Both the position numbers and the translations under genes were made by a program. A stretch of DNA of 64,000 nucleotides, taken from contig JASTWF010000523.1 in assembly GCA_030390025.1 (NCBI GenBank), positions 186,001-250,000 on the forward strand, in the 5' to 3' direction. Below the pieces are notes generated by a model, which worked only from the letters and a program-made list of their open reading frames with translations, had not been told where the DNA came from and searched no databases. Below, piece by piece: positions 11,400 through 62,348 of this stretch. How positions within the stretch are numbered: the stretch's first letter is position 1; the number at the start of each line of letters is the position of its first letter. Source of the DNA: Squalus acanthias (taxonomy: Eukaryota).

Positions 11400-12800
11400 A
11401 ATAAAATAAAAACACAGAATGCTGGAAACACTCAGCAGGTCAGGTAGCATCGAAGAGAGGAGAAACAGAGTTAACGTTTCAGGTCGAACCCTTCGTCAGA
11501 ACTGGAAAAGGTTCGGGAGGAGAGATTTTTAAGCAGAGGAGGGGAGGAAAGAACAAAGGGCAGGTCTGTGATGGGATGGAGGGCAGGAGAGATTGAATGA
11601 CTAAAGTGATGATAGTGTAAGGCAAAAGGTAACGTTGACTCTGTTTCTCCTCTCTTCGATGCTGCCTGACCTGCTGAGTGTTTCCAGCATTTCGTTATTT
11701 CAGATTTCCAGCATCCGCAGTATTTTACTATTGTATTAGTTTTGGGAGTCACTGGGCTGATAGTGGATGTTTGTCGATCGCCTATCCCCAGAAATGGAGA
11801 GAGAGAGGTTGAGGAAGGGAAGGGATGAGTCGGAGATGGACCATGTGAAGGTGAGGGAAGAGTGGAAATTGGAAGCAAAGTGAATTAAATTTTCTGGTTC
11901 CGGGCGAGAGCAGGAAACGGCACCGATATAGTCATCAATGTACCGGAAAAAGAGGTGAGGGGACTTGAGTAGGACTGGAACAAAGAACGTTCCACATATC
12001 CCACAAAAAGGCAGACATAGCTAGGGCCCATGCGGGTTCCCATAGCAACACCTTTAATTTGGAGGAAGTGAATGAAGTCGAAAGAGAAGTTGTTAAATGT
12101 GAGATCAGGTTCAGTGAGGCAGAGGAGGGTGGTGGAGGATGGAGACAGGTTGGGCCTCTGTTCAAGGAAGAAGCGGAGCGACCTCAGGCCATCCTAGTGG
12201 GGGATGGAGGTGTAGAGGGATTGGATGTCCATAGTGAAAAGGAGATGGTTGGGGCCAGGAAACTAGAAACTGCTAAACTGGCGGAGGGCGTCGGAAGAGT
12301 CGCGGATGTAGATGGGAAGAGACTGGACAAGGGGAGAAAAGAATGGAGATCGGAAGGACAAGAACAGGCTGAAACAATGGGTCTACCAGGGCAGTCCTGT
12401 TTGTGGATCTTGGGAAGGAGGTAGAAGCGGGCTGTGCAGGGTTGGGGGACGATGAGGTCGGAGGCCGTGGAGGGAAGATCTCCAGAGGAGATGAGGTCAG
12501 TGACAGTCCAGGAAACGATGGCTTGATGTTGGGTGGTGGGGTCATGGTCCAGGGGGAGGTAGGAGGAGGCGGCGGAGAATTTGCCGTTCAGCCTCCGCAC
12601 GGCAGAGGTGGGTTCGCCAAACAGCAGCAGCGCCGACCTTGTCAGCAGGTTTAGTGAGCAGGTCGGGGCCGGCTCTGAGAGAACGGAGAGCTGCAGGTTC
12701 AGAGGGAGGGAGGTTAGAGTGAGCGAGGGGAGCAGAGACAGTGAGACGGCCGATGTCAGGCCGGCAGTTCACCATGAAGAGATGGAGAGAGGGCGAGAGG
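11400..12800 (-). mobile_element. Degenerate Penelope-like element, second family, with pLTR pieces in both orientations
   Basis: KPADK..AAAVW and ARFYLLPKIHKQDCPGRPIVSACSCP RT motifs; pLTR at 11405-11500 (-) and an inverted copy at 11630-11735 (+). Confidence 0.85.
11470..11499 (-). ncRNA. Minimal hammerhead motif of the second Penelope family
   Basis: Minus strand reads CTGACGA-AGGGTTCGACCT-GAAACGTTAAC. Confidence 0.6.
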
Positions 12801-20526: not shown

Positions 20527-21230
20527 GGACTGAGTTAGAGTCACTTCACTCCGGATCGGGACTGAGTTACAGACACTTCACTCCGGATCGGGACTGAGTT
20601 ACAGACACTTCACTCCGGATCGGGACTGAGTTACAGACACTTCACTCCGGATCGGGACTGAGTTACAGACACTTCACTCCGGATCGGGACTGAGTTACAG
20701 ACACTTCACTCCGGATCGGGACTGAGTTACAGACACTTCACTCCGGATCGGGACTGAGTTACAGACACTTCACTCCGGATCGGGACTGAGTTACAGACAC
20801 TTCACTCCGGATCGGGACTGAGTTACAGACACTTCACTCCGGATCGGGACTGAGTTACAGACACTTCACTCCGGATCGGGACTGAGTTACAGACTCTTCA
20901 CTCCGGATCGGGACTGAGTTACAGACTCTTCACTCCGGATCGGGACTGAGTTACAGACTCTTCACTCCGGATCGGGACTGAGTTACAGACTCTTCACTCC
21001 GGATCGGGACTGAGTTACAGACACTTCACTCCGGATCGGGACTGAGTTACAGACACTTCACTCCGGATCGGGACTGAGTTACAGACACTTCACTCCGGAT
21101 CGGGACTGATTACAGACACTTCACTCCGGATCGGGACTGATTACAGACGCTTCACTCCGGATCGGGACTGAGTTACAGACACTTCACTCCGGATCGGGAC
21201 TGAGTTACAGACACTTCACTCCGGATCGGG
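20527..21230. repeat. 32-bp minisatellite, about 22 near-identical copies
   Basis: Unit GACTGAGTTACAGACACTTCACTCCGGATCGG. Confidence 0.95.
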
Positions 21231-21434
21231 TCTGCTAACCTCGCAGATTGATCGGGTAATATCTCCACAGGAATTCCAGGCTGTGGTCTCTGGAGGGGCA
21301 GAGACTCTGTTCCAGTCCAGGTTGGGCGGGGATGATAAGTTGCAGGGTGAGGGTGGGAGGGTTATTCAGTGACCCTCGGCCCTGCTGGGGTTCCAGTCAA
21401 ACACTGATTACAAACTGAGTTACAATTGGGAATG

Positions 21435-21516: not shown

Positions 21517-22058
21517 TCAGTGACCTTTAACCCCGCAGATTCCCAGCGGGGCGATGTTTTTCCCGTCGTTATTCAATTCCGGACTGAAGATGGGAAAGAT
21601 TCTCTCAGTGAAAGTGTGGGTGAAAGTGTGGAGTTCGGACATGTTGTTCGCATTGTAAAATATCACCTGTCCGCCCTCATAGTCCAGGTACACCCCGATC
21701 CTCCGGGGCTTCACACTCGGGGTGAGGCGGGTCGGTGGGGAGGTGAAGGCAAGATAGACACTTCCGAGGAACAGCCTCACAATCCAGTATCCGCTCTCAG
21801 GTCTCAGGGCGATAAACCCTTTCCTCTCGGCAGACTCTCGTACCACTCCCAGAATCCACTCAGTCTTGTTCCCCACCTCCACCTCCCAGTAGTGTCTCCC
21901 TGATGTGAATCCCTCCGATCCCAGGACACAGAACCACCGATCAAACCTCTTCGGGGTGTCAGGGACGTCCTGCGGTTTGTCTCCGAGACTCACACTGGTC
22001 CGGTCCTCAGACACGATGAGCTGGGGATTCGCTGTGTCCGGATCCAGAGTCACTGTAA
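21517..22058 (-). CDS. BTN-like terminal exon: B30.2 (PRY-SPRY) domain
   Basis: [14 protein letters not shown]...[25 protein letters not shown]...[10 protein letters not shown]; acceptor TTTTTATTGCAG; stop at 21517. Confidence 0.95.
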
Positions 22059-25000
22059 CTGCAATAAAAATATTAAACTGAGTCCGGCACCTGGAGCTCG
22101 AACCATCACCGATCAGGAGCAAAAACCCGGAGCGGCCTGATCCCAGCTAGCAGACCCACATTCACACCGGGTGTAATCCCGGTCCGGACCGGCTCAGTGT
22201 ACCTGCAGGTCACACACAGACCCAACTCCACATTCACACCCGGTGTAATCCCGGTCCGGACCGGCTCAGTGTACCTGCAGGTCACACACAGACCCAACTC
22301 CACATTCACACCCGGTGTAATCCCGGTCCGGACCGGCTCAGTGTACCTGCAGGTCACACACGGACCCAACTCCACATTCACACCCGGTCCAATCCCGGTA
22401 CTGACCGGCTCAGTGTACCTGCAGGTCACACACAGACACAACTCCACATTCACACCCGGTGTAATCCCGGTCCGGACCGGCTCAGTGTACCTGCAGGTCA
22501 CACACGGACCCAACTCCACATTCACACCCGGTCCAATCCCGGTACTGACCGGCTCAGTGTACCTGCAGGTCACACACAGACACAACTCCACATTCACACC
22601 CGGTGTAATCCCGGTCCGGACCGGCTCAGTGTACCTGCAGGTCACACACAGACCCAACTCCACATTCACACCCGGTGCAATCCCGGTACTGACCGGCTCA
22701 GTGTACCTGCAGGTCACACACGGACCCAACTCCACATTCACTCCCGGTGCAATCCCGGTACGGACCGGCTCAGTGTACCTGCAGGTCACACACGGACCCA
22801 ACTCCACATTCACACCCGGTGTAATCCCGGTCCGGACCGGCTCAGGGTACCTGCAGGTCACACACAGACCCAACTCCACATTCACACCCGGTGTAATCCC
22901 GGTCCGGACCGGCTCAGTGTACCTGCAGGTCACACACACCCAACTCCACATTCACACCCGGTGTAATCCCGGTCCGGACCGGCTCAGTGTACCTGTAGGT
23001 CACACACACCCAACTCCACATTCACTCCCGGTGTAATCCCGGTACGGACCGGCTCAGTGTACCTGCAGGTCACACACGGACCCAACTCCACATTCACTCC
23101 CGGTGCAATCCCGGTACGGACCGGCTCAGTGTACCTGCAGGTCACACACAGACCCAACTCCACATTCACACCCGGTCCAATCCCGGTCCGGACCGGCTCA
23201 GTGTACCTGTAGGTCACACACACCCAACTCCACATTCACTCCCGGTGTAATCCCGGTACGGACCGGCTCAGTGTACCTGTAGGTCACACACACCCAACTC
23301 CACATTCACACCCGGTGCAATCCCGGTACGGACCGGCTCAGTGTACCTGCAGGTCACACACACCCAACTCCACATTCACACCCGGTGTAATCCCGGTCCG
23401 GACCGGCTCAGTGTACCTGCAGGTCACACACGGACCCAACTCCACATTCACACCCGGTGTAATCCCGGTCCGGACCGGCTCAGTGTACCTGCAGGTCACA
23501 CACACCCAACTCCACATTCACACCCGGTGTAATCCCGGTCCGGACCGGCTCAGTGTACCTGTAGGTCACACACAGACCCAACTCCACATTCACACCCGGT
23601 GCAATCCCGGTCCGGACCGGCTCAGTGTACCTGTAGGTCACACACAGACCCAACTCCACATTCACTCCCGGTGTAATCCCGGTACGGACCGGCTCAGTGT
23701 ACCTGTAGGTCACACACAGACCTAACTCCACATTCACACCCGGTGTAATCCCGGTACGGACCGGCTCAGTGTACCTGCAGGTCACACACACACCCAACTC
23801 CACATTCACTCCCGGTGCAATCCCGGTACTGACCGGCTCAGTGTACCTGCAGGTCACACACAGACCCAACTCCACATTCACACCCGGTGTAATCCCGGTC
23901 CGGACCGGCTCAGTGTACCTGCAGGTCACACACAGACCCAACTCCACATTCACACCCGGTGTAATCCCGGTCCGGACCGGCTCAGTGTACCTGCAGGTCA
24001 CACACGGACCCAACTCCACATTCACACCCGGTCCAATCCCGGTACTGACCGGCTCAGTGTACCTGCAGGTCACACACAGACACAACTCCACATTCACACC
24101 CGGTGTAATCCCGGTCCGGACCGGCTCAGTGTACCTGCAGGTCACACACGGACCCAACTCCACATTCACACCCGGTCCAATCCCGGTACTGACCGGCTCA
24201 GTGTACCTGCAGGTCACACACAGACCGGACCCAGTCCAATAATCACTTTCAGACCATTTCTCTCGGTCTCTCTCCAGTCTGGGGATTGGCCCATTCAGCC
24301 ACTTTGACCCTGAACCCCACCCCGTGAGCAGGAGCAGACCCTCACCCTTCCAAACAGATTGAGAGTCAATGATTGTAGGAAAGGGACAAGTAAAATACAC
24401 ACACACCAGGGACAGGCTGAGATGATTTTAAACATCTCCATCATATAAACATCCGGCTGTTTAGCCCGTTTCCTACAGGTGCTGTGCGAATCTGAATGTT
24501 TATCAGTCACTTCCTCCCCCATCATATTTCAAAAATGAGAAGTCGCACAACACCAGGTTATAGTCCAACAGATTTATTTAATTTTACAAGCTTTCGGAGC
24601 TATCGCTCCTTCGTCAGGTAAGTTAGCAATGAGAGAATCTCCCAGAATTCACAATTTAAACCCAGACAAAATCTATTCACATTATTCGCTACAACAAAGA
24701 GCACAGCCAAGACAATGAGATGTGTCCCAGGGGGTCCAGCGTGTCAAACCACCTGCTGGCTGCATATCCTGTCAATTTGTGTTCTTGTGTTTTTAAACCA
24801 CATAAAAACACAAGAACACAAATTGACAGGATATGCAGCCAGCAGGTGGTTTGACACGCTGGACCCCCTGGGACACATCTCATTGTCTTGGCTGTGCTCT
24901 TTGTTGTAGCGAATAATGTGAATAGATTTTGTCTGGGTTTAAATTGTGAATTCTGGGAGATTCTCTCATTGCTAACTTACCTGACGAAGGAGCGATAGCT

Positions 25001-28000
25001 CCGAAAGCTTGTAAAATTAAATAAATCTGTTGGACTATAACCTGGTGTTGTGCGACTTCTCATTTTTGTCCACCCCAGTCCAACGCCGGCATCTCCACAT
25101 CATGACATCATATTTCAGACAGTATCACATTGTCAAAGCTCAATACCTACACTGTGACTGCAGTGTGAGCAGGAGTGAGCTGAACCTGCAGCCTGGGACT
25201 CTGACTATCAGGCACTGAGAGGGGCTCTGTCCATCCAACTCCCTACAGGGAGCTTCAAGTCCAACAGCCCAGGCCTGGAGCAGGGATCTGGGAGCAGGAA
25301 TCTCACTGAACCTGCCGGGCCCGACCCCCAGCTGGATTGTGTGACCTCAGGCTGTGCATTTAGAATTGAAAGAGATGGATCTTCATGTTAATATCAGTGG
25401 CATGTGCTGTTACAGGGAGAAATAGACAACAGCTCTGTCGGGAATGAGTTACCACCCTGACCCTGTGGCACAGTCCCCTCTCACTCACTGCAGTATTTAT
25501 AGACAGACGGTGTTTCAGACAGGACTTGTGGAAATGCTGATGTTTTAATTATTGACAGGGCTCCCCCACGGATGTTAAACACTCCACACAGACCAGAACC
25601 TGAACTTCACAAGACAGAAACTGGCACAGCCCCAGGATCTGAAGTCTCTTACCTGCAAACATCGTAATCTCCTCCCGCTCTGAAAAACAGATTAAAATAA
25701 CATCAATGGCGCCGTCACATAATAAAGTGTAAATACTGAGCATAAATGGATCACAGAACCGGGCGACACAATGATTGCCATTTATTTACAGTGACCCGGA
25801 CACCACTGACATATCTCACTGAGAGCTGCACATCACACAGGATCCACCACACTCGGGACTGTCCACTTCTAGACAGGAACCTTAAAGGAGCCGGATCCAC
25901 TCACTGTGAGAAGATGCTTATCTCCGTCAGTAAGACCATTCTGTGGGAACGAGGTCGTACAGTAATTGTGGATCAGGAGGGAGCAGCTCGTGGTGTGTGA
26001 CCCTGTGTAAAAACCTTCGGGAAAACTTACAGCACAGCTGCTGTTCAGCGGAGACATCACACAGAGCAGATAAATATCACCAGAATTCATCACAATACTT
26101 ATCGACAAAATACAATCCAGCTACACTGATACTGGGCATCATCCCTTTCAATAATTACACACTGCATGGAGGGGCCATGGAACCACAGCTGAGATTTTCT
26201 CACAACTCTTCTTACCTGAGTCTTCTAGCTGCTTCTGTAGATCTGGAAGAGAATAGATTTTCATTAGAAACAACCTCCAGTTTCCTGACTGGTCTCAATG
26301 ATTTTCATGGGACTTGGAATAACTTTCATTAATGAGTTAAAGAGAAGAATCAAATTCAGACAGCAGACAGTGTATTGATGGGACAAAGGAAGACTTGTCT
26401 TTATATAGCGAGTGATCACATCGCCCTTCTCCACCCCACCTCAGCTCATAGGCTGCTGAAACCCTAAATCCAAGCCTTTGTTACCTCCAGACCTGACTAT
26501 TCCAACACAATCCTGGCCGGCCTCCCATCTCCCACCCTCTGTAAACTTGAGCTCACCCAAAACTCTGCTGCCCGTGTCCTAACTCGCACCAAGTCCCGTT
26601 CACCCATCACCCCTGCACTCGCTGACCTACATTGGCTCCCGGTCTGGCAACACCTCAATTTTAAAATTCACATCCTTGTATTCAAATCCTTCCATGGCCT
26701 CATCCCTCCTGATCTCTGTAACCTCCTCCAGCCCCACAACCCTCCCTATCTCTGTAACCTCCTCCACCCCTACAACCCTCCCTAGATCTGTAACCTCCTC
26801 CAGCCCTACAACCCTCCCTATCTCTGTAACCTCCTCCAGCCCTACAACCCTCCCTATCTCTGTAACCTCCTCCAGCCCAACAACCCTCCCTATCTCTGTA
26901 ACCTCCACCAGCCCTACAACCCTCCCTACCTCTGTAACCTCCTCCAGCCCTACAACCCTCCCTATCTCTGTAACCTCCTCCAGCCCTACAACCCTCCTTA
27001 TCTCTGTAATCTCCTCCAGCCCTACAACCCTCCCTATCTCTGTAATCTCCTCCAGCCCTACAACCCTCTCTATCTCTGTAATCTCCTCCAGCGCCACAAC
27101 CCTCCGAGATCTCTACATTCCTCCAATTCTGGCCTCCTTTGCAGCCCCGATTGGCGGCCGTGCCTTCAGCTGCCTGGGCCCTAAGCTCTGGAATTCCCTC
27201 CCTAAACCTCTCTATCCTCCTTGAACACGCTCCTTAAAACCTCATCAACCAAATTTTTGGTTACCTGTCCTAATATCTCATGTGCCTCAGTGTCACATTT
27301 TGTCTGATAACACTCCTGTGAAGCACCTTGGGGTGTTTTACTATGTTAAAGGTGCTGTATAAATACAAGTTGTTGTTGGTGTTGTATAGCGACTGATCAC
27401 ATTCTCAGGATGTCCCAAACACGCACCACATCCGAACAATTACTGTTTGAAGTGCAGTGACCGTTATGTAAGCAACGACATCAGCCATATTATGCACAGC
27501 ATGATCCCACCCACAGAAATGAAATGAACGAGTTCAGTCTGGTTTTGGTGGTGTTGGCCCAGATAAAGTTTAAGTGAAGACTCAAGCACCTCTGCGTGTT
27601 CGCAATCAGGAAATTTAACCCAAAATGATTGAGATGGAATTCCGCCCAAATGGTCGCGCAAACCCAATGATCAGAATCCTGAACCTAAAATCATCCGTGA
27701 ATCAGTGCAATCAACGAGCGAAACTGAAACAGAACCCATGGAGCCTCAAGGTGCTTTATTTTTAATTAGTTCCTGGGATGTGGGCGTCGCTGGCAAGGCC
27801 AGCATTTAGTGCCCATCCCTAATTGCCATTCAGAAGGTGGTGGTGAGCCGCCTTCTTGAACCACCGCAGTCTGTGTGGTGAAGGTGCTCCCACAATGCTG
27901 TTCGGGAGGGATTTCCAGGATTTTGACCCAGCGACGATGAAGGAACCGTGATATATTTCCAAGTCAGGATGGTATGTGACTTGGAGATGATGGAGTTCCC

Positions 28001-37000: not shown

Positions 37001-40000
37001 AAGGCTGTCTGTACTTAAAGTTGGTAAGTCACCAGGACCGGGTGGAATACATCCTAGGGTGCTGAGGGAAGTTAAGGAGGAAATCGTGGAAGTACTGGCC
37101 ATAATCTTCCAAACCTCCTTAGAAACGGGGGTGGTGCCAGAGGACTGGAGAATTGCACAGGTTACACCCATGTTCAAAAAAGGGTGTAAGGAAAAACCCA
37201 GCAACTACAGGCCAGTCAGTTTAACCTCGGTAGTGGGGACGCTTTTAGAAACGTTAATCAGGAACAAAGTTAACAGTCACTTGGACAAGTGTGAATTAAT
37301 TAAGGAAAGCCAGCACAGATTTGTTAAAGGCAAATCATTTTAACTAACTTGATCGAGTTTTTTGATGAGGTAACAGAGAGGGTTGATGAGAGCAATGCGG
37401 TTGACGTGGTGTACATGGATTTCCAAAAGGCGTTTGATAAAGTGCCACATAATAGGCTTGCCAAAAAAGTTGAAGCCCATGGAATAAAAGGGACAGTGGC
37501 AGCATGGATATGAAATTGGCTAAGTGACAGAAAAGAGAGTAGTGGTGAACGGTTGTTTCTCGGACTGGAGGAAAGTATACAGTGGTGTTCCCCAGGGGTC
37601 AGTACTAGGACCACTGCTTTTCTTGATATACATCAATGACTTGGACTTGGGTGTACAGGGCACAGTTTCAAAATGTGCAGATGACACAAAACTTGGAAGT
37701 AGAGTGAACAGTGGAGGTTAGTGATAGACTTCAAGAAGGCTGGATAGACAGGCTGGTGAAATGGGCCGACACACGGCAGATGAAATTTAATGCAGAAAAG
37801 TGTGAAGTGATACATTTTGGTAGGAAGAATAAGGAGAGGCGATATAAACTAAACCGTACGATCCTAAAGGGGGTGCATGAACAGAGAGACCTGGGGGTAT
37901 GTGTGCACAAATCGTTGAAGGTGGCAGGGCAGGTTGAGAAAGCGGCTAAAAAGCATATGGGATCCTGGGCTTCACAAATAGAGGCATAGAGTACAAAAGC
38001 AAGGAAGTTATGATGAACCTGTATAAAACACTGGTTCGGCCTCAACTGGAGTATTGTGTCCAATTCTGGGCACCGCTCTTTAGGAAGGATGTGAAGGCCT
38101 TAGAGAGGGTGCAGAAAAGATTGACGAGAATGATTCCAGGGATGAGTTACGTGGATAGACTAGAGAAGCTGGGGTTGTTCTCCTTGGAGCAGAGAAGGTT
38201 GAGAGGAGATTTGATAGAGGAGTTCCAAATCATGAGGTGTCTAGACAGAGTAGATAGAGAGAAACTGTTCCCACTGATGGAAGGGTCAAGAACCTGAGGG
38301 CACAGTTTTAAGGTGATCGGCAGAAGAACCAATGGCGACATGAGGAAAAACCTTTTTTGCGCAGCGAGTGATTATGATCTGGAATGCACTGCCTGAAAGG
38401 GTGGTGGAGGCAGATTCAATCATGGCTTTCAAAAGGGAATTGGATAAGTACCTGAAGGAAAAAAATTTGCAGTGCTACGGGGAAAGGGCGGGGGAATGGG
38501 ACTAGCTGAAGTGCTCTTGCAGAGAGCCAGCACGGGCTTGACGGGCTGAATGGCCTCCTTCTGTGCTGTAACCAGTCTATGATTCATCTACAAGCCCTGG
38601 TTTGATTACTTACTACACGACCCCCTCCCAGCCCCCCGACACACTCCAATCCCGCTCCACCTGAAGATTTCTTTTGGTTTTGACTTCACGTGTGAAATGT
38701 CCGCGGGAGACTGAGTAGTCTCAAATAAATATGTTTAAATTTAATTGAAATAGCAAACGAAGGAATTACATACGACGCGGTTAACCATTCCTCCAAATGT
38801 CACTGACAGCAATTTCAGGGCTGTTTCTGTTCGTAGCATTTCTAGTGCAGCAAGCATCAGTTTTTCAAAATGATGGAAAACGTGCATCTAAAATGTAACC
38901 TGTGGTAAGTTCACATGTAAGGATTTTTTCCTGTGTGTTAGGTGGCATGAAGCAGGCAGAGCTGGAGGTATCCAGCACAGAGAGACTGTGAAACTCCACT
39001 GGAATATGGAACAGCAATTCAGAGTTCTGCAGCCAAATGCAGGCTTTCCCAATCCCGGATCAGTAAGTGATGGTTTGTACTGTGATGTACTTTAGTGAAA
39101 TGGAACGCAGTGATATTAAATCACTGTTACTGCAAGATTATGGATCCTCTTATTCTGTACAATTATAAGAAAAAATGATTTTCTGTATATTTCAGTGTTT
39201 ACACAATTCAAGATTTTAAACATTTTTTGTAAGATGTTACCTTTCAATTCTTTCCATGTATAAAAAACACCGTTCCATCGGTCTAACCAGTAGAGAACAG
39301 CGGCAATTATTAGAATAGCAGTGAGAACCGTGAATATCCAGAAAGCCACACACCATCCTGAAACTCCCATCTCCTGAGGGAAAAACTCATCTGTAAATAA
39401 ACAAACAAACTTATTTGTTGTAGAACTAAGATACCATTGACATGTCAAACAATAAATCCATCAGACTGATGAATGTGTTCATGTGAATATTTCATAAATA
39501 TGTCATAAACCCTCTGTTGAGGAGGGCTCGTCACTGACCTGCTATCTCAATAATCCCTTCTCTTTCCTCGAAGAGCAATCTGTTCCTTATCAGACAGGAG
39601 TAGCTTTCCCCAAGATCCTTTGTGATGTTGATGTGACTTTCGATAGTGACAGCTCCGCTGGACTCTGTAGTATTCAGGGTTTTAGACGGTGCAGAAATGT
39701 CCGGTCCATCTGTGTATCTCCAGGATACCTCAGGGGCCGGGTACCATCCACTGGATTTACACACAAGACTCCCCCCTCGCTCATGGAATCCTTCAACATG
39801 GATCTCAGGTTGACTCCCAGACACTACAAATATGGACAATAAGCTGCATATTATTTTATTGTACCAAGACATCTATTGGATAAATACGGTCCATGCAGTG
39901 TGTAATTATTGAAAGGGATGGTTCAGGAGAGGCTTTTAACAGGGTTTTGTTCCAGAACGGATCGCTGTTCATGACCTCTGCCATCAGTTGGTACAGATGT

Positions 40001-43000: not shown

Positions 43001-44555
43001 AAACCATAAATGATTCAAACAGTATCAGAACTGGGGGCAAGCACAAAATAGGAAATATTCCAAATGATCATTTCCTTGAAGTATTCATAAGGGAAAATGA
43101 TCAACATTCTCTCCCCCCACCCCCCGAACTAAATGGCTAAAAACAGTAGACGACAAGTCAGAGGAAGCCACGATCAAACTGCACGGTGCTCTGGTCAGAG
43201 CCCACCTTGAATACTGTGTCCAGTTCTGGCCATTGAGAAACAAGGGAGACATTTGAACACTGGAGGCAGATCGGAGAAGATCCACCAGACTCATCCCCAG
43301 TGTCAGGGTTCTGAGTGACGGGAAAAGACTGGAGAAACCTGGGATTTGCACCTGGAAAGGAGGCTTCTGAGAGGTGACCTTGTCGAGGTAGATATAGGTA
43401 GTTAAAGGAACGGAAAAGGTAAAGCTGAAATATTACTTTAAATTGTGAGAGTGGGACAAGTGAACACAGGTTCAAACTAGTAAAAGGTAAATGTGAGACT
43501 GGTAACAGCCAGTTCATCAAACAAAGAGTGATCAACACATGGAATGGACTCTGGACAGAGCGGGGGAGGAGAAAACCCTGGAGAGGTTTAAGAAACAATT
43601 GGAGGCCCAATGGGGGAAGTTAGGGTCTTTCTAGTTAAAATAAAATGGGCCGAACGGCCTTCCTCATCTGTAATTGTCTTGTGATCCAGGGAGGGGGAGG
43701 AGGGAATCTCAGGCCATGAGATAAAGTGTTGGTCCAGAGTCCCAGTGACACGTTCTACAGTGAATCTACACCCACAGTGAGCACTGTACAGATTGAGATG
43801 TAGAAGATCCCCAGTGTTCCCGAGACTGATTGTTCAGAATGAGAGTGAATGGATCGAGCATGGTTTCATTCCCTCCACAATCCAATCACAATACGGAACA
43901 TTAACTCCATGTACTCAAACTGAAGCAGCAATAACAGTTAAGAATCAATGTTAGTATTCTAAGTTTATAAATTAATTAAAAAGACATTTTACACGGGGAT
44001 GTAAATTTCTGAATAATTTTTGGTGACTATATTCAAAGATTCAGTTCTCTGTATCAATACCTACCGGCTACTGTTAGTTCAGCATCTCCTGCATGTCCCC
44101 AGGAACTGGAGCTCACGATGCATTTGTATTTACCCTCATCGGAGATACGGATGTTGCTTAGACGGACAGAGATATTTCCCTGATCGAATTTGTCCATAAA
44201 GAGCTCAGTCCTTCCACGGTAGTAGCTCGACCTTCCACGACTGCGTCCATTTATAACTAAAACTACAGTTTCTCGGTTATCTGCTTTTAACCATTCCAGT
44301 TCCATACTCGGAGGGTCAAAGCTCGGTGTGACCCGACAGTTCAGTGTGACGCTACTACCCACGGCCACTAGTACTGGGCTGTCTGCACCGGTCACTTTGA
44401 AGTCTCCTGTAACTGAAGAATGAATAGCATTTAAATACTGTCACAGCACACATTATACAGACAATCCAGACTTCATGCCTTTAATCCAGTCTCTTACCTG
44501 CTGCTGTAATCTGAATCTGTAACAATAGGAATGACGCCAGTAAGCGATTCTCCAT
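21517..44555 (-). CDS. Butyrophilin-like (BTN/BTNL-type) gene, spliced CDS: 44555-44498, 44406-44065, 39823-39539, 39390-39241, [candidate 38841-38774, 36270-36246], 26242-26216, 25679-25653, 22058-21517
   Basis: Seven core exons, all with AG/GT boundaries and phase-1 junctions, total 1431 nt (476 aa + stop) with no internal stop. Domain order leader-IgV-IgC-TM-27-nt exons-B30.2 is the butyrophilin architecture. Confidence 0.9.
22152..24224. repeat. 72-bp minisatellite (some 70-bp units), about 29 copies, in the last BTN intron
   Basis: Period 72; internal palindromes ACCTGCAGGT and CCGGTCCGGACCGG. Confidence 0.95.
24585..24617 (-). ncRNA. Minimal hammerhead ribozyme motif (- arm; sense to the BTN pre-mRNA)
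   Basis: Exact reverse complement of 24981-25013. Confidence 0.72.
24981..25013 (+). ncRNA. Minimal hammerhead ribozyme motif (+ arm of palindrome)
   Basis: CTGACGA-A-GGAGC(GATA)GCTCC-GAAAGCTTGTA. Confidence 0.72.
25653..25679 (-). CDS. BTN-like 27-nt exon preceding B30.2 (EREEITMFA)
   Basis: CTGTTTTTCAG acceptor, CAG|GTAAGA donor, phase 1-1; splices to give ...FAVTVTLDP. Confidence 0.82.
26216..26242 (-). CDS. BTN-like 27-nt cytoplasmic heptad-type exon (xLQKQLEDS)
   Basis: TTCTCTTCCAG acceptor, CAG|GTAAGA donor, phase 1-1, coiled-coil-like sequence. Confidence 0.82.
26420..27385 (+). mobile_element. L2 LINE 3' fragment with an internal 36-bp tandem expansion (26710-27105)
   Basis: L2 motifs (RPDYSN, HITP...LHWLP, GRAFS...LWNSLP); tail TATAAATACAAGTTGTTG. 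Confidence 0.85.
27765..29285 (-). mobile_element. Family-B LINE, degenerate RT
   Basis: [29 protein letters not shown] motifs. Confidence 0.88.
29460..30146 (+). mobile_element. CR1 5'UTR + ORF1 fragment (zinc finger, leucine zipper, start of esterase)
   Basis: CTSCAMW...[19 protein letters not shown]...VIVVGDSI. Confidence 0.82.
30147..30280 (+). mobile_element. tRNA-derived SINE head
   Basis: GGTAGCGTCGTGG A box and GAGTTCAAATCCC B box; similar decayed heads at about 36495-36580 (+) and 40320-40460 (-). Confidence 0.65.
30285..30655 (+). mobile_element. CR1 3' fragment
   Basis: [21 protein letters not shown] motifs and 3' tail. Confidence 0.8.
31458..31814 (-). mobile_element. PIF/Harbinger (HARBI1-like) DDE transposase remnant
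   Basis: [40 protein letters not shown]...LHNL matches the Harbinger nuclease C-terminal motif. Confidence 0.78.
32255..34266 (-). mobile_element. Family-B LINE, degenerate
   Basis: [30 protein letters not shown] motifs; (ATGA)n tail. Confidence 0.88.
34268..35945 (+). mobile_element. CR1 (+) interrupted by a minus-strand CR1 3' fragment (34357-35019)
   Basis: Host DFQKAFDK|VPH is split; TSD TAAGGT at 34351-34356 and 35020-35025. Confidence 0.88.
36246..36270 (-). CDS. Candidate BTN-like micro-exon (KCTMDKAG)
   Basis: Strong GTAAGT donor, AATTAG acceptor, 25 nt (phase 0-1); complements the 68-nt candidate (93 nt total, no stop). Confidence 0.38.
36612..38585 (+). mobile_element. CR1 LINE, 5'-truncated, frameshifted
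   Basis: Consecutive RT ORF fragments. Confidence 0.9.
38774..38841 (-). CDS. Candidate BTN-like juxtamembrane exon ([23 protein letters not shown])
   Basis: CACTAG acceptor, GTATGT donor, 68 nt (phase 1-0), open; keeps frame only together with 36270-36246. Confidence 0.4.
39241..39390 (-). CDS. BTN-like exon: transmembrane segment
   Basis: [39 protein letters not shown]...; the 'FFP...W' start is typical of BTN TM exons; acceptor TTTACAG, donor AAG|GTAAC; 150 nt. Confidence 0.88.
39539..39823 (-). CDS. BTN-like exon: IgC domain
   Basis: [12 protein letters not shown]...[16 protein letters not shown]...[11 protein letters not shown]; the CxSxGWYPxPxxxW motif is typical of BTN/B7 C domains; 285 nt, phase 1-1, TTTGTAG acceptor and CAG|GTCAGT donor. 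Confidence 0.93.
40680..42275 (+). mobile_element. CR1 LINE, degenerate, with internal deletion
   Basis: [22 protein letters not shown] motifs and 3' tail. Confidence 0.85.
42750..43685 (+). mobile_element. Old degenerate CR1
   Basis: [13 protein letters not shown]-like remnant and CR1 3' end. Confidence 0.65.
44065..44406 (-). CDS. BTN-like exon: B7/BTN-family IgV domain
   Basis: [20 protein letters not shown]...MELEW...[34 protein letters not shown]; acceptor TTACAG|GA, donor GCCG|GTAGG; 342 nt, phase 1-1. Confidence 0.93.
44498..44555 (-). CDS. BTN-like exon: signal peptide ([20 protein letters not shown])
   Basis: ATG at 44555 in context CACAATGG, hydrophobic core, phase-1 donor CAG|GTAAGA. 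An acceptor TTTACAG 8 nt upstream of the ATG implies a further 5'UTR exon. Confidence 0.85.
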
Positions 44556-51759: not shown

Positions 51760-52523
51760 ATTGGCCCAGAAATTCGGGTCCCCACGGGTGTGAACGCGCT
51801 GTGTACTCACCCGTAGGGCCACCGGAAGTGCCGGTTTCGCGCATGCACGGGAAACTGTAACTTACGGTCTCGTGAAGGAAGGGGATCGTGGACAACTGCG
51901 TGCGCGGGAGAGGCAGCGCGTACGCATCAAACTTCGGCTTTTTTTTTGACACGTTTCTCCGTGCGGGTAAGTCCCTAGCAGCTGCGTGGGGAAAAAGCAG
52001 GCGCAAGGCTTGCTTTTAACAAGATAAGTGGTGAATTAAGTCAAATTCAAACATTTTTTCCCACAGGTTTATTATTTTTAAATACTTCAAAAGAAAGGTA
52101 AGTTTATTTTTAGCCCCATTAAAAACTGTAATTAATTTTTTCAAAAATTTAAATTATTGTTTAAAATAGTTATTTTATGTAATTTATAGTTATGTTAAAA
52201 ATGTGATGTTTTAAAAAAAAATTATTTGAAGTTTTAGTGAGGTTTTGGGGCCGATCGCTATTCATAGATTTGACAGGTCTTCCTGTCAAATCTATGAATG
52301 GAGATTCCCTGCTCCGATTGGCTCCCCATGGCCCACGTGATCCCAGGGGACGCTTCGAACTAACTGCGCCGCTGGGATCCACGAGCACTGTGCGCCGGAA
52401 GCTGGAGGCGGCCCAGGATCCGAATCCCATGCGGGTCCACAGCACAACGGCAGGCACGCTAGGTAAGTGCACCCGCTATGCTTGCACCCGCGGGAAGCCT
52501 CCGACCCGAATTTCTGGCCCAAT
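51760..52523. mobile_element. Non-autonomous DNA transposon (MITE, Harbinger-like TIRs)
   Basis: 21-bp TIR ATTGGCCCAGAAATTCGGGTC / GACCCGAATTTCTGGCCCAAT (1 mismatch); GC-rich arms around an AT-rich core. Confidence 0.8.
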
Positions 52524-53164
52524 ATATCCGCTAAGTGGCTCTCTTTAGAGATCATGATCATCACACGTGAGGACACTACCCACCAGGTACATGGTACATA
52601 CTCATGTGACTCGGCCAACGTTGTCTACCTGATACGTTGCAGTAAAGGATGCCCCAGAGCATGGTACATCGCCGAGTCCATGCAGACACTGAGACAACGT
52701 ATGAACGGACACCGCGCAACAATCGCCAGGCAGGAGGGTTGCCTCCCAGTCGGGGAACACTTCAGCAGTCAGGGGCATTCAGCCTCGGATCTGCGGGTAA
52801 GCGTTCTCCAAGGCGGCCTTCGGGATACACGACAGCGCAAAATCATAGAGCAGAAACTGATAGCCAAGTTCCACACTCATGAGGATGGCCTCAATCGCGA
52901 TATCGGGTTCATGTCACGATACAGAACGTGACTTGACATCATGGCCGGTCTTTCCAGGTTTTCTTAAAAAAAAACTAACACAAGAACCAACACAAATGGA
53001 GAGGATATGCAGCCAGCAGGTGTTTTGACATGTTGGACCCCCTGGGACACATCTCATTGTCTTGGCTGTGCTCTTCGTGTGTCTTTGATGTAGGGAAAGA
53101 TTTGAATACATTTTTTCTGTGTTTATATTGCGAATTCTGGGAGATTCTCTCACAGCTACCCTAC

Positions 53165-53197
53165 CTGAAGAAGGAGCGACAGCTCCGAAAGCTTGTA
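53165..53197 (+). ncRNA. Minimal hammerhead ribozyme motif in 5' pLTR
   Basis: CTGAAGA-A-GGAGC(GACA)GCTCC-GAAAGCTTGTA: core, helix II and palindromic AAGCTT helix III. Confidence 0.75.
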
Positions 53198-53285
53198 AAA
53201 TTAAATAAATCTGTTGGACTATAACCTGGTGTTGTGCGACTTCTCATTTTTGTCCACCCCAGTCCAACGCCGGCATCTCCACATC

Positions 53286-55951
53286 ATGACCTCTATTGAC
53301 ACCGCAAACTGCCGGCTCAAAGTGGAGAGAATCGCCAAGAAGATCGCGCATATTGACACAGACATCAAGTACCTGCAGAGATGCAAGAAAGCAGACAAGA
53401 TTCCGAAAGGACTACAGATCACGAACCCACTCAAGTCGACATACAACACAGACTACGCTGAGAGACTCTGCCGTCGTACCTCTCGCACACTCCTCAACCA
53501 TCTCGTACACCAGCTCTACAGCAGACGCCGCAACCTCGAAACCAAGATAGAGTCCATGCTCTCAGCCTGTGCTCAGGACACAGCAGACCAGCTACGAGAC
53601 ACCGCCAAACAGACGAGGCAACGGAACTACGCATCAAGAACAGGAAGCTTGAGAAACTCGGCGTAACCACCAGCTGCAACCAAGCCTCCCCCGGTACCAC
53701 GGTTGCAACCACAGGGAAGTCCATCGTCAACCTGTCGGACCACACCCTTCAACCAGACGAAATCGAAGTTCTCGCCCTAGGGCTCAAGTTCTGCCCCACC
53801 ACCAAAATGGACCCCATCGGTCTCGCGGCGGACACAGAGGAATTCATCAGGAGAATGAGGATCCGGGAATACTACCACAAATCCCAAGATGTCAGCAACA
53901 TTCCTAATGAGACAATCAATGATCCGGAACAGCAGACAGAGGGAACCGCAGTGCTACAACCGAGGAAGAAAGAGTCAAATTGGACCCCTCCGGAGGGTCG
54001 CAACCCTAAGCTTGACATGTATGCTCAAGCTGTCAGGAAATGCATCAACGCCAGATTCATCAGCCGCACTCACAAGACAGTCCAGAATGTCACCCGAGCA
54101 CAACGCAACGCCATCCACGCTCTCAAGACCAACCGCAACATCGTCATCAAACCAGCGGACAAAGGAGGAGCCATCGTCATACAGAACAGAATGGACTATT
54201 GCAAAGAAGCATACCGACAACTGGACAACCAGGAACACTACAGACAGCTACCCGCAGATCCGACCAAAGAACACACCCGCCAACTCAATAGACTGATCAA
54301 GACCTTCGATCCAGACCTTCAAAACATCCTACGCGCTCTCGTCCCACGTACTCCCCACGTAGGAGACTTTTACTGCCTCCCAAAGATACACAAAGCCAAC
54401 ACACCCGGACGTCCTATCGTATCAGGCAACGGAACCCTGTGTGAGAACCTCTCTGGGTACGTCGAGGGCATCCTGAAACCCATCGTACAGGGAACCCCCA
54501 GCTTCTGTCGCGACACTACAGACTTCTTGCAGAAACTCAGCACCCATGGACCAGTTGAACCAGGAACACTCCTCTTCATGATGGACGTATCGGCACTCTA
54601 CACCAATATCCCCCGCAATGACGGCATCGCTGCGACAGCCTCAGTACTCAACACCAACAACAGCCAATCTCCAGACGCCATCCTACAACTCATCCGCTTC
54701 ATCCTTGACCACAATGTCTTCACCTTCGACAACCATTTTTTTACCCAAACACACGGAACAGCCATGGGGACCAAATTTGCACCCCAATACACCAACATCT
54801 TCATGCACAAGTTCGAGCAAGACTTCTTCGCTGCACAGGACCTCCAACCAACGCTGTACACCAGATACATCGACGACATCTTCTTCCTTTGGACCCACGG
54901 CAAAGGATCACTGAAAGGACTACACGATAGCATCAACAGGTTCCATCCCACCATCAAACTCACCATGGACTACTCCTCAGAATCGGTTTCATTCTTGGAC
55001 ACACGAATCTCCATCAAAGACGGACGCCTCAGCACTTCACTCTACCGCAAGCCCACGGACAACCTCACGATGCTCCACTTCTCCAGCTTCCACCCTAACC
55101 ACGTTAAAGAAGCCATCCCCTATGGACAAGCCCTGCGAATACACAGGATCTGCTCAGACGAGAAGGAACGCGATGGACACCTACGGACACTGAAAGACGC
55201 CCTCGTAAGAACGGGATATGACGCTCGACTCGTCGATCGACAGTTCCGACGGGCCACAGCGAAAAACCGCATAGACCTCCTCAGAAGACGAACACGGGAC
55301 ACAACCAACAGAGTACCCTACGTCGTCCAGTACTTCCCCGGAGCGGAAAAACTACGCCATGTTCTTCGCAGCCTTCAACATGTCATCGATGACGACGAAC
55401 ACCTTGCTAAGGCCATCCCCACGCCTCCACTACTCGCCTTCAAGCAGCCGCCTAACCTCAAAAGTACCATCGTTCGCAGCAGATTACCCATCTTTCAGGA
55501 GAACAGCAACCACGACACCACACAACCCTGCCACGGCAACCTCTGCAAGACATGCCAGATCATGGACACAGATACCATCATCACACGTGAGGACACTACC
55601 CACCAGGTACACGGTACATACTCATGTGACTCGGCCAACGTTGTCTACCTGATACGTTGCAGTAAAGGATGCCCCAGAGCATGGTACATTGGCGAGACCA
55701 TGCAGACACTGAGACAACGTATAAACGGACACCGCGCAACAATCGCCAGGCAGGAGGGTTGCCTCCCAGTCGGGGAACACTTCAGCAGTCAGGGGCATTC
55801 AGCCTCGGATCTGCGGGTAAGCGTTCTCCAAGGCGGCCTTCGGGATACACGACAGCGCAAAATCATAGAGCAGAAACTGATAGCCAAGTTCCGCACTCAT
55901 GAGGATGGCTTCAATCGCGATATCGGGTTCATGTCACGATACAGAACGTGA
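53286..55951 (+). CDS. Penelope polyprotein: RT + GIY-YIG endonuclease (one frameshift; 714-aa open part 53807-55951)
   Basis: KPADKGG, FYCLPKIHK..PGRPIVS, GTAMG, RYIDD RT motifs; C-terminal VVYLIRC...WYIGET...R..GH GIY-YIG motif. Confidence 0.92.
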
Positions 55952-56183
55952 CTTGACATCATGGCCGGTCTTTCCAGGTTTTTTAAAAAAAAACTAACAC
56001 AAGAACCAACACAAATGGAGAGGATATGCAGCCAGTAGGTGTTTTGACACGTTGGACCCCCTGGGACACATCTCATTGTCTTGGCTGTGCTCTCCGTGTG
56101 TCTTTGATGTAGGGAAAGATTTGAATACATTTTTTCTGTGTTTATATTGTGAATTCTGGGAGATTCTCTCACAGCTACCCTAC

Positions 56184-56216
56184 CTGAAGAAGGAGCGACA
56201 GCTCCGAAAGCTTGTA
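56184..56216 (+). ncRNA. Minimal hammerhead ribozyme motif in 3' pLTR
   Basis: Same sequence as 53165-53197. Confidence 0.75.
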
Positions 56217-56865
56217 AAATTAAATAAATCTGTTGGACTATAACCTGGTGTTGTGCGACTTCTCATTTTTCTCTTTAGAGAAACTGTGCAGCAGTGCCAT
56301 CTATCGACACAGACAAGTTTTACAGGAACAGAAATTCCTGGGATTCCTTCTGCTGATACAGCAACAGCTGAGTTCCTGTCACTGTAAAACCTTTAAACAA
56401 ACAGAACAGCTTTCAGCGCGAGAACTCCGCGGCATCGGCTATGGAGCACTGGCTTTGAATTGCTTTTCTGAACTGGGGGAGGTTGGAGGCAGAGAATGAA
56501 TCTGTGAAGTAAGCATCATGACTGCCAAGGCAGCGGTCATGTTTGGAGATGGCCCATCACACCTCGAGAAATATGTCTATCAGTATGTAGCGGACAGCAT
56601 TTGGAGCGTGTGATTTTACACCACTGTCAGATGAAGGAACTCTGCCGAAAACTTTAACCTGTCTTTTCTCTTTGCAGATGGTGACAAATGGACTGTGAAA
56701 TTCCAGCATTTTCTGTTTTGAAATTCAGCAATGCTGGAAACATTATCTCATTGAAAGCATCATAAGCACTCACGTGGAGCTTCTCTTAATTATGGTCACT
56801 CAGATTTATTACAATCATTAACTTCCTTTTTACAGACGATGCGTTTTTGGAGGACATGGCCTCGC

Positions 56866-57445
56866 CCATCTCCACCTCTATAACCACCTTCTGCCCTACA
56901 ACCCTCTGAGATCTGGGTGCCGTGGCCTCCTGGCCAGCCTCTAATCTTCCACCCTCATCAACTAGAACTCATTCAAAACTCTGATGCCCGTGTCCTAACG
57001 TATGAGGAGAGATTGGGTCGATTAGGCTTACATTCGCGAGAGTTTAGAAGAATGAGAGGGGATCTCATTGAAACTTATAACATTCTAACAGGACTAGACA
57101 GACTAGATGCAGGAAGGATGTTCCCGATAGCGGGGGAGTCCAGAACCAGGGGTCACAGTCTGAGGATAAGGGGTAAGCCATTTAGGACTGAGATGAGGAG
57201 GAATTTCTTCACCCAGAGAGTGGTGAACCTGTGGAATTCTCTACCACAGAAGGCAGTTGCAGCCAATTCATTAAATATATTCAAGAAGGAGTTAGATATA
57301 TTTCTTAAGGCTAAAGGGACCAAGGGATATGGGGAGAAGGTAGGGACAGGGTACTGAATTTGGATGATCAGCCATGATTGCATTGAATGGCGGAGCAGGC
57401 TCGAGGGGCCGAATGGCCTACCTCTGCTCCCATCTTCTATGTTTC
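56866..57445 (+). mobile_element. L2 fragment (56866-57000) followed by a CR1 3' fragment (57000-57445)
   Basis: LELIQNS.ARVLT (L2) fused to YEERL...RMRGDLIETY (CR1). Confidence 0.8.
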
Positions 57446-60400
57446 TATCTCTGTAACATCCTCCAGCCCGACAACCCTCCCTCTCTGTAACCTCCTCCAG
57501 CCCGAAAACCCTCCCTCTCTGTAACCTCCTCCAGCCCCATAACCCTCCCTACCTCTGTAACCTCCTCCAGCCCCTACAAAACTCCCTATCGCTGAAATCT
57601 CCTCCAGCACTACAACCCTCCCTATCTCTGAAACCTCCTCCAGCCCCCACAACCCTCCCTATCTCTGTAACCTCCTCCAGCCCCGAAAACACTCCCCATC
57701 TCTGTAACCTCCTCCAGCCCCGCCAACCCTCCCTATCTCTGTAACCTCCTCCAGCCCCCTACAACCCTCCCTATCGCTCTAAGCTCCTCCAGCCCCCTAC
57801 AACCCTCCCTATCTCTGTAAACTCCTCCAGCCCCACAACCCTGCCTATCTCTGTAACCTCCTCCAGCCCTACAACCCTCCCTATCTCTGTAACCTCCTCC
57901 AGCCCTACAACCCTCCCTGTCTCTGTAACCTCCTCCAGCCCCCACAACCCTCCCTTTCGCTGTAACCTTCTCCAGCCCCCAACAACTCTCCCTACATCTG
58001 TAACCTCCGCCAGCCCCCTACACCCCTCCCTAACTCTGTAACCTCCTCCAGCCCCCTACAACCCTCCCTATCTCTGTAACCTCCTCCAGCCCCTACAACC
58101 CTCCCTATCTCTGTAACCTCCTCCAGCCTCTACAAACCTCCCAATCTCTGTAACTTCCTCCAGCCACTACAAACCTCCCTATCTCTGTAACCTCCTCCAG
58201 CCACTAGAACCCTCCCTATCTCTGTAACCTCCTCCAGCACCCTACAACCCTCCCTATCTCTGTAACCTCCTCCAGCCCCTACAACCCTCCCTATCTCTGT
58301 AACCTCCTCCAGCCTCTACAAACCTCCCAATCTCTGTAACTTCCTCCAGCCCCCTACAAACCTCCCTATCTCTGTAACCTCCTCCAGCGCCTGCAACCCT
58401 CCCTAGCTCTGTAACCTCCTCCAGCCCCCGACAAGCCTCCCTATCTCTGTAACCTCCTCCAGCCCCCTACAACCCTCCCTATCTCTGTAACCTCCTCCAG
58501 CACCCTACAACCCTCCCTATCTCTGCAACCTCCTCCAGCCCCGACAACCCTCGCTATCTCTGCAACCTCCTCCAGCCCCGCCAACCCTCCCTAGCTCTGT
58601 AACCTCCTCCAGCCCTCTACAACCCTATCTCTGTAACCTCCTCCAGCCCCCGACAACCCTCCCTATCGCTTTAACCTCCTCCAGGCCCCTACTACCCTCC
58701 CTATCTCTGTAACCTCCTCCAGCCCTACAACCCTCCGGATCTCTGTAACCTCCTCCAGCCTATACAACCCTCCCTATCTCTGTAACCTCCTCCAGCCCTC
58801 TACAACCCTCCCTATCGCTTTACCCTCCTCCAGCCCCCTACAACCCTCTCTATCTCTGTAACCTCCTCCAGCCCCACAACCCTCCCTATCTCTGTAACCT
58901 CCCCCTGCCCGACAACCCTCCCTATCTCTGTAACCTCCTCCAGCCTCTACAACCCTCCCTATCTCTGTAACCTCCTCCAGCCCCCTACAAGCCTCCCTAT
59001 CTCTGTAACCTCCTCCAGCCACAACAACCCTCCCTATCTCTGTAACCTCCTCCAGCACCACAACCTTCCCTATCTCTGTAACCTCCTCCAGCCCCTAAAA
59101 CACTCCCCATCTCTGTAACCTCCTCCAGCCCCGCCAACCCTCCCTATCTCTGTAACCTCCTCCAGCCCCTACAACCCTCCCTATCTCTGTAACCTCCTCC
59201 AGCCCCCTACAACCCTCCCTATCGCTCTAACCTCCTCCAGCCCCCTACAACCCTCCCTATCTCTGTAACCTCCTCCAGCCCCACAACCCTCCCTATCTCT
59301 GTAACCTCCTCCAGCCCTACAACCCTCCCTATCTCTGTAACCTCCTCCAGCTCTACAACCCTCCCTGTCTCTGTAACCTCCTCCAGCCCTACAACCCTCC
59401 CTATCTCTGTAACCTCCTCCAGCCACTACAACCCTCCCTATCTCTGTAACCTCCTCCAGCCCCCTACAAGCCTCCCTATCTCTGTAACCTCGTCCAGCCT
59501 CCTACAAACCTCCCTATCTCTGTAACCTCCTCCAGCCCCCTACAACCCTCCCTATCTCTGTAACCTCGTCCAGCCTCCTACAAACCTCCCTATCTCTGTA
59601 ACCTCCTCCAGCCCCCTACAACCCTCCCCATCTCTGCAACCTCCTCCAGCCCCGACAACCCTCGTTATCTCTGTAACCTCCTCCAGCCCCGCCAACCCTC
59701 CCTAGCTCTCTAACCTCCTCCAGCCCATACAACCCTCCCTATCTCTGTAACCTCCTCCAGCCACCGACAACCCTCCCTATCGCTTTAACCTCCTCCAGCC
59801 CCCGACAAACCTCCCTATCTCTGTAACCTCCTCCAGCCCCACAACCCTCCCTATCTCTGTAACCTCCTCCAGCCCTACAACCCTCCCTATCTCTGAAACC
59901 CCTCCAGCCCCCTACAACCCTCCCTAATTCTGTAACCTCCTCCAGCCCCCGACAACCGTCCCTATCTCTGAAACCTCCTCCAGCACCTACAACCCTCCCT
60001 ATCTCTGTAACCTCCTCCAGCCCCCTACAACCCTCCCTATCTCTGTAACCTCCTCCAGCCACTACAAACCTCCCTATCTCTGTAACCTCCTCCATCCCCC
60101 TACAACCCTCCCTATCGCTCTAACCTCCTCCAGCCCCCTACAACCCTCCCTATCTCTGTAACCTCCTCCAGCCCCACAACCCTCCCTATCTCTGTAACCT
60201 CCTCCAGCCCTACAACCCTCCCTATCTCTGTAACCTCCTCCAGCTCTACAACCCTCCCTGTCTCTGTAACCTCCTCCAGCCCTACAACCCTCCCTATCTC
60301 TGTAACCTCCTCCAGCCACTACAACCCTCCCTATCTCTGTAACCTCCTCCAGCCCCCTACAAGCCTCCCTATCTCTGTAACCTCGTCCAGCCTCCTACAA

Positions 60401-62065: not shown

Positions 62066-62348
62066 CTCCCAGGCTCTGTCACCCGGGGTCGGGGAGGGTG
62101 CGGCGGGGCCTGGAGCTGCTCCAGTCGGCCTCCTGGGTGTGAGGAAGGAGCCCAGCCCGGCCGATGCCTCTCCTCCCCGGGGCCGCACTCATTCTCCCCC
62201 ACTCCACTCGCTCAATGCATTGGCAGCAAATGGCACCAACCTGTCTGCGCCCAAACTTTGCTCCAACAAAATGGCCCGACTCAAACTCGCTCAAAAGCGC
62301 TTTCACTTTGCTGCCTTTGGATGGGCGCGGCGTCAATTGGAGCAAAGG

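Follow-up and report, generated by a model that had tools for sequence, protein, structure and literature searches.

A perfect palindrome in the predicted last intron of a butyrophilin-like gene

We analysed a 64,000-nt stretch of DNA from Squalus acanthias (assembly GCA_030390025.1, contig JASTWF010000523.1, positions 186,001 to 250,000 of the forward strand; hereafter the window), in which a perfect palindrome lies within a butyrophilin-like gene of the minus strand, in what is predicted to be its last intron. Very probably the palindrome represents two 5'-truncated pseudo-long terminal repeats (pLTRs) of a Penelope-like element (PLE) joined head to head, the dead-end by-product of an ordinary insertion and likely of one recent event.

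The two arms, 24530–24795 (minus strand; an inverted, 5'-truncated pLTR without a tail) and 24803–25068 (plus strand; also 5'-truncated), are exact reverse complements of 266 nt each and are separated by a 7-nt centre at 24796–24802. This head-to-head joint falls in an A/T run that, in a related element of the same window, lies ~45 nt behind the stop of the upstream open reading frame (ORF). The runner-up inverted match in the window, among matches of at least 60 nt, is only 96.7% over 61 nt, so the palindrome is not due to chance. The right arm runs on into an unmirrored PLE tail of 37 nt (25069–25105, plus strand), which is identical to the related element at 37/37 positions and ends just behind the ORF start codon (ATG, 25102–25104). 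A 12-mer at 24520–24531 is repeated at 25106–25117 (both on the plus strand), with no extension possible, and forms the target site duplication (TSD). The last two nucleotides of its left copy are also the start of the left arm, and the first base of its right copy also fits the next base of the element, giving target/element overlaps of 2 nt and 1 nt at the outer junctions. The outer end of the left arm is the upstream one of two 3' ends found in the family. The preliminary description of this locus had listed the same exact arms, 7-nt loop, 12-bp TSD and tail of ~37 nt, all of which are borne out by the letters of the window. Its designation of the insert as non-coding also stands: each arm contains a stop-free frame of 95 codons, and the minus-strand copy, the one tested, has no Pfam match. 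An exact 31-nt pattern sought in metagenome contigs gave 0 matches.

The host gene was outlined by a Pfam search of 112 chosen frames, which placed a V-set domain at 44057–44440, a BTN3A2-like C2-set_3 domain at 39534–39872 and a PRY/SPRY region at 21520–22146, all on the minus strand. The B30.2 (PRY/SPRY) exon spans 21520–22058 (PF13765, E 1.6e-26; PF00622, E 5.8e-25), and splice signals suggest two minus-strand exons of 27 nt at 26216–26242 and 25653–25679. The order of IgV, IgC, short heptad-type exons and B30.2 on one strand is that of a butyrophilin-like gene, with the exon structure predicted from sequence; no transmembrane exon could be placed. The predicted last intron, 22059–25652 (3,594 nt, minus strand), contains the palindrome, in agreement with its earlier placement in a BTN intron.

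The parent element

The related element is a near-full-length PLE at 52552–56269 (plus strand), organized as a partial tandem of a 3' fragment (52557–53254) followed by a whole unit. The fragment repeats 55577–56273 at 98.1%, so that pLTRs begin at ~52977 and ~55996. Together with its tail, the right arm is 88.5% identical to the pLTR at 52977–53297 and 87.4% identical to that at 55996–56273, and the last segment of the arm matches the former at 58/58 positions. The related PLE has its own 12-bp TSD (52540–52551 and 56270–56281), and its tail-less 3' end, at the pLTR end 56269, corresponds within 1–2 nt to the outer end of the left arm. We considered this copy as the direct source and rejected it, because one segment is identical at only 66/90 positions and its ORF (ATG at 53286) is frameshifted inside the first 126 codons; it is a relative only.

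The long frame of the relative, P0001, contains the motifs GxKF and DKG, reverse transcriptase (RT) motifs, and VVY-C-C-YIG with two inner cysteines and two later histidines. Pfam gave RVT_1 at E 3.7e-06, under its cut-off, and no GIY-YIG match for this frame; the GIY-YIG/CCHH assignment follows the motifs named in PMC8557442. A CX2-5CxxC linker lies between the RT and endonuclease (EN) domains at residues 690–698. In PMC8557442 this linker separates Neptune and Nematis from Penelope and Poseidon, and by that criterion the parent element would be of Neptune or Nematis type. The label Penelope/Poseidon was dropped once the zinc-finger motif of the linker had been found. Neptune is the likelier of the two given the vertebrate distribution, a vertebrate survey having found Neptune and Poseidon to be the most widespread PLEs. 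As judged from sequence, both arms are pLTRs of a Neptune/Nematis-type PLE, and the match to an RT and GIY-YIG element in the same window agrees with the PLE origin, tail and inverted geometry proposed earlier.

Three other features of the window touch on this element or resemble it. The related PLE (52540–56281 with its TSD, plus strand), which lies upstream of the IgV exon, holds two same-strand hammerhead motifs, at 53165 and 56184, which might function together as a dimer in read-through RNA. Just to its left, an AT-rich stretch has at its midpoint a 52-bp imperfect palindrome (52254–52305), possibly the centre of a DNA element resembling a miniature inverted-repeat transposable element (MITE). 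A different minimal hammerhead-like motif at ~11440–11510 (minus strand, core at 11499) lies within one arm of a 61-bp inverted repeat (11418–11478 and 11631–11691, 96.7%), and 11418–11691 is possibly another small inverted PLE-derived insertion, from another family.

The empty target site and the family ends

Four of 20 listed public runs, each from a different study and represented by contigs only, were compared with 24240–26400: X1, X5 and X7 (organism A) and X6 (organism B). An empty site was found in 4/4 runs: a joint leads from 24519 straight to 25106, leaving out 586 nt, and the 12 letters at the joint, a single copy of the 12-mer, match the sequence on either side. The insertion and its TSD are therefore genuine.

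Matches to the compared region came from 12,048, 10,564, 965 and 887 contigs in the four runs, with nearly all depth on the arms; in X1 the summed arm depth was 2,600–46,000 times that of the flank, a ratio that is not a copy number. The PLE family is very abundant. Among the best 24 of 526 entries, tail-less loose ends with unlike flanks occurred in 21 contigs at 24529 and 22 contigs at 25072, and tailed loose ends with unlike flanks occurred at 25103–25105 (31, 7 and 10 contigs); ends at 25103–25105 were present in X5, X6 and X7. Thus the family has two preferred 3' ends, and these match the two outer ends of the palindromic insertion. A>G plus T>C changes made up 15/45 differences in X7 (guessed to be RNA) versus 9/29, 5/19 and 8/31 in the DNA runs; these counts say nothing on editing, because they pool contigs of the whole family and X7 shows the empty form.

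Head-to-head joints and coupling of the arms

Contigs that pass directly from the left arm to the right arm can only be head-to-head junctions. We collected 22 distinct joints of this kind, with arms of up to ~190 nt, as a subset of those listed for the four runs: 13 of the first 15 among 103 entries (the empty site and one within-arm entry were removed) and 10 of the first 12 among 64 (two duplicates were removed), less one further likely duplicate. Three of the joints turn up in both X1 and X5. In 12/22 joints the two arms depart from symmetry by no more than 10 nt, whereas random re-pairing would give 4.9 such joints (p ~0.0003); with all 23 entries, 13 are symmetric against 5.4 expected. 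In addition, both arms of the focal palindrome carry a rare base, at 24859 and at its mirror 24739. This base accounts for 1.3, 5.5, 0 and 1.3% of the depth of the family across the four runs, so the arms share a single template or source. Three findings together, namely the surplus of near-symmetric joints, the rare base present in both arms and the correspondence of the outer ends to the two family ends, indicate that the two halves were copied in a coupled way from a single template or source, with a centre built anew at each insertion.

Origin of the palindrome

Extension of two primers on one RNA template, for which we have a modest preference within an ordinary insertion, would leave a tail on one side only, a TSD and identical arms, and would give near-symmetry if the same RNA end were reached. 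The endonuclease would nick both target strands 12 nt apart, and each nick would serve as a primer for copying the same RNA into cDNA, one copy starting at the end of the tail (25105) and the other 37 nt upstream (25068). Both cDNA copies would run to the same 5' end near the A/T run, and host repair would join them, leaving the 7-nt centre. In the Poseidon element of Anolis carolinensis (PAc), both target strands are cut and extended from two start sites whose spacing equals the tail (PMC11167929). The tail-less site is also where the non-inverted relative in the window stops, flanked by a TSD of its own. The pLTR parentage, the TSD and the empty site support the original description of the palindrome as a non-autonomous and probably young insertion.

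The same geometry could arise if a single tail-primed cDNA snapped back at the A/T run, copied itself, and stopped or was cut at the tail-less site. Such a fold-back holds a lesser share of the ordinary-insertion reading, leaving a small one for other routes, and is overall a possible but rather unlikely origin. It accounts well for the perfect arm identity with its common rare base, and for joints that are nearly symmetric and have a few additional letters between their arms; self-priming has also been proposed for junction palindromes of Adineta vaga (PMC3846280). However, the tail-less end is the normal end of non-inverted copies (56269), so that an extra cut would be needed to produce it here. 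The 7-nt loop also resembles upstream element sequence more on the tail-less than on the tailed arm, an argument that is weak because the upstream sequence of the source subfamily is not known.

Several observations weigh against an ordinary insertion from two primers. Near-symmetry and arm identity fit a fold-back just as well. The joints are the best-supported subset, in which bias or library fold-backs are possible, and they come from run contigs rather than from a whole-genome copy count of the focal centre. Two X5 joints, 24626–25059 at a depth of 294 and 24762–24876 at a depth of 750, may be multi-copy. The flanks differ from the empty-site contigs by ~2% (in X1, 4/280, and 19 plus 5 gaps of 1,063), and many of these differences are common to both organism labels; the empty form may therefore represent another allele, a paralogous locus or a sister species. 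Finally, no contig joins flank to arm among the best 32 of 24,816 pieces, which leaves the filled allele in the window only.

This absence of the filled form from the pieces listed for the four runs is what a sequencing or assembly fold-back would predict, and perfect palindromes are a known class of such artefacts. An artefact would mirror the flanking DNA, yet here the mirror stops at family-typical ends and the tail is one-sided. The two copies of the 12-mer are identical, and the sequence on either side of the insert aligns collinearly with the empty site. We therefore regard an artefact as very improbable.

The two deep X5 joints, together with the fact that both outer ends of the palindrome are valid element ends, would suit a fixed non-autonomous palindrome that is re-mobilised, in a MITE-like or retrozyme-like manner, through its hairpin RNA and ribozymes. 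This origin is improbable. The joints listed have 22 different centres, the ribozymes are predicted to be sequestered, and the palindrome is without the tandem same-strand hammerheads that define active non-LTR retrozymes (10.64898/2026.07.22.740005). The deepest joint (750) coincides with a short imperfect inverted repeat of the pLTR (24826–24836 and 24876–24887), a possible hot spot for inversion at which repeated independent joins are expected. There is a comparably slight chance that a subset of pLTR-only palindromes, including this one, is transcribed as a hairpin and re-inserted by the enzyme of the parent, since both outer ends are start sites. If that were so, MITE-like re-insertion would introduce a splice donor, together with sequence giving long perfect double-stranded RNA (dsRNA), into genes like the present butyrophilin.

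Hammerhead motifs and predicted folding

Each arm contains a minimal type I hammerhead motif, at 24976–25015 on the plus strand (predicted cut between 25010 and 25011) and, as its mirror on the host-gene strand, at 24583–24622 on the minus strand (predicted cut between 24588 and 24587). The cores begin at 24981 (plus) and 24617 (minus) by the published minimal descriptor, as the earlier claim of one hammerhead core on each strand implied. The motif comprises a 4-bp stem I, the CUGANGA core, a bulged A, a 5-bp stem II, GAAA, a G10.1-C11.1 pair and a palindromic GC that replaces helix III. It thereby has the features by which minimal PLE hammerheads are recognized in PMC4209133, and differs from the motif of the relative at N7, in loop 2 and in outer stem I. 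Rfam returned no hammerhead family among 23 matches to 23500–26000 (E<=10), so the identity of the motif rests on that descriptor. MicroRNA-type Rfam matches at the centre were set aside, as all were under the gathering score and are expected of any perfect hairpin.

In folding predictions, the right arm with its tail alone forms stem II with a probability of 0.97. In the whole insert, on both strands, the probability of stems I and II falls to 0.0, as it does in 4/4 growing prefixes of the host-strand RNA, and a forced hammerhead costs 64.6 kcal/mol above the minimum. Because the arms stand head to head, the antisense arm is transcribed first on either strand. An outward transcript from the centre could fold one motif. 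When two isolated motifs were co-folded, the predicted intermolecular structure was not a helix III dimer, and the result is thus silent on dimer activity. Monomers of minimal PLE hammerheads did not cleave (PMC4209133), and the PAc hammerhead required protein and was not essential to insertion in vitro (PMC11167929). The hammerheads would thus be passengers of the insert. Each strand has one, which depends on a dimer and which, in read-through RNA, is predicted to lie hidden within the 266-bp duplex.

We also looked for truncation by cleavage among the inner ends. Of 46 inner ends, 30 lie at 25008–25049, none at 24981–25007 and one at 25011; these counts are not evidence of cleavage, because of subfamily divergence (24968–24979 and 25016–25019) and a 20-letter detection limit.

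A viroid-like RNA forms an imperfect rod, to which the folding of a ribozyme is an alternative in either polarity. The RNA predicted here is instead a perfect duplex whose ribozymes would be unable to fold in either polarity. The rod-like ribozyme RNA of viroid or retrozyme geometry, envisaged in the preliminary description, accordingly finds no support: each strand has one dimer-dependent motif, predicted to be sequestered, and the joints listed for the family show many different centres.

Possible effect on the host gene

A long dsRNA is predicted in the pre-mRNA of the filled allele, with a duplex energy of ~-547 kcal/mol for 681 nt. The host strand of the insert also carries a predicted consensus-type splice donor, CAG/GTAAGT (24975–24983, minus strand; donor at 24983), antisense to the 5' side of the hammerhead. 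At 24980–24983 (minus strand) a polypyrimidine-AG directly precedes GTAAGT, giving the shape of a recursive splice site antisense to the hammerhead stem I and core. Cryptic exons from 5/5 candidate acceptors upstream would reach a stop in 38 codons or fewer and truncate the protein before B30.2. The insert might therefore act on its host, either through editing or dicing of the pre-mRNA duplex or by diverting splicing to the new donor with loss of the B30.2 exon. We consider such an effect unlikely: the homologous site is empty in 4/4 runs, so the insert is not conserved, and the donor itself would lie inside the duplex once the second arm had been transcribed. Should the insert be segregating in the species, it would offer a natural test of a 266-bp intronic duplex in a butyrophilin-like immune gene.

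The gene and its surroundings have further features of their own. The 27-nt exon at 25653–25679 (minus strand) has six differences within 25664–25672 in X1 and X6, against ~2% in nearby intron, which may reflect divergent alleles or paralogues. A second PRY/SPRY (B30.2) exon, at 1670–2215 on the opposite (plus) strand, means that two B30.2 genes converge in the window. Minisatellite arrays lie in and around the gene, at 22156–24226, 20527–21234, 26704–27105 and 57445–62070, with periods of 72, 32, 36 and 37; the 72-bp array occupies more than half of the palindrome-bearing intron.

Comparison with known systems

An inverted pLTR, a one-sided tail, a TSD and opposite-strand hammerheads are already published features of PLEs, and as a single locus the palindrome is ordinary. 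Its pLTR origin, the partial tandem of its relative, the inverted head-to-head copy, the tail of 30–40 nt and the TSD with its empty site are all found in insertions of endonuclease-bearing (EN+) PLEs, for which inverted pLTRs, one-sided tails and TSDs have been described (PMC3846280, PMC8557442). Listings of the open-access literature showed no paper on this PLE family or on the symmetry of PLE joints, and PMC8557442 calls the origin of inverted pLTRs and one-sided tails undefined. The locus is one clean data point on how PLEs make these structures, in a very abundant family with many short inverted insertions whose empty sites can be recovered.

The nearest structural likeness is to Pen2a, Pen2 and Pen3a of Adineta vaga (PMC3846280; scheme in PMC8557442), in which an inverted, 5'-truncated pLTR also stands head to head and a tail of 30–40 nt, reaching into the ORF start, is found at one end only (PMC3846280). 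The TSD is 8–10 bp there and 12 bp here. Unlike the Adineta vaga elements described in PMC3846280, both halves of the present insertion are cut off within the pLTR, and for this reason no ORF is left and a single perfect palindrome remains.

With the minimal hammerheads of PMC4209133 the motif shares a short helix I (4–5 bp), a bulge between 9 and 10.1, the G10.1-C11.1 pair and a palindromic 15.2–16.2. Opposite-strand hammerhead pairs in Schistosoma lie 100–700 bp apart (PMC4209133), a range that includes the 364 bp observed here, whereas stem II has 5 bp in the present motif, which is known from sequence, and 7–8 bp in the Schistosoma families of that source.

PAc (PMC11167929) has in common with the family two start sites a tail-length apart and a hammerhead in the pLTR. 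Cutting and extension of both target strands, described for PAc, is what we propose for the palindrome by analogy. The related element differs in having the CX2-5CxxC linker, which Penelope and Poseidon are without, and in the placement of the hammerhead, which overlaps the ORF start in PAc (PMC11167929) and lies wholly upstream of the ATG in the related element.

Like the non-LTR retrozymes (10.64898/2026.07.22.740005), the palindrome is non-coding, derived from a pLTR, a few hundred bases long and furnished with a type I hammerhead. Retrozymes, however, are head-to-tail arrays of tandem units with at least two consecutive hammerheads on the same strand, whereas the palindrome is a head-to-head pair with one motif on each strand.

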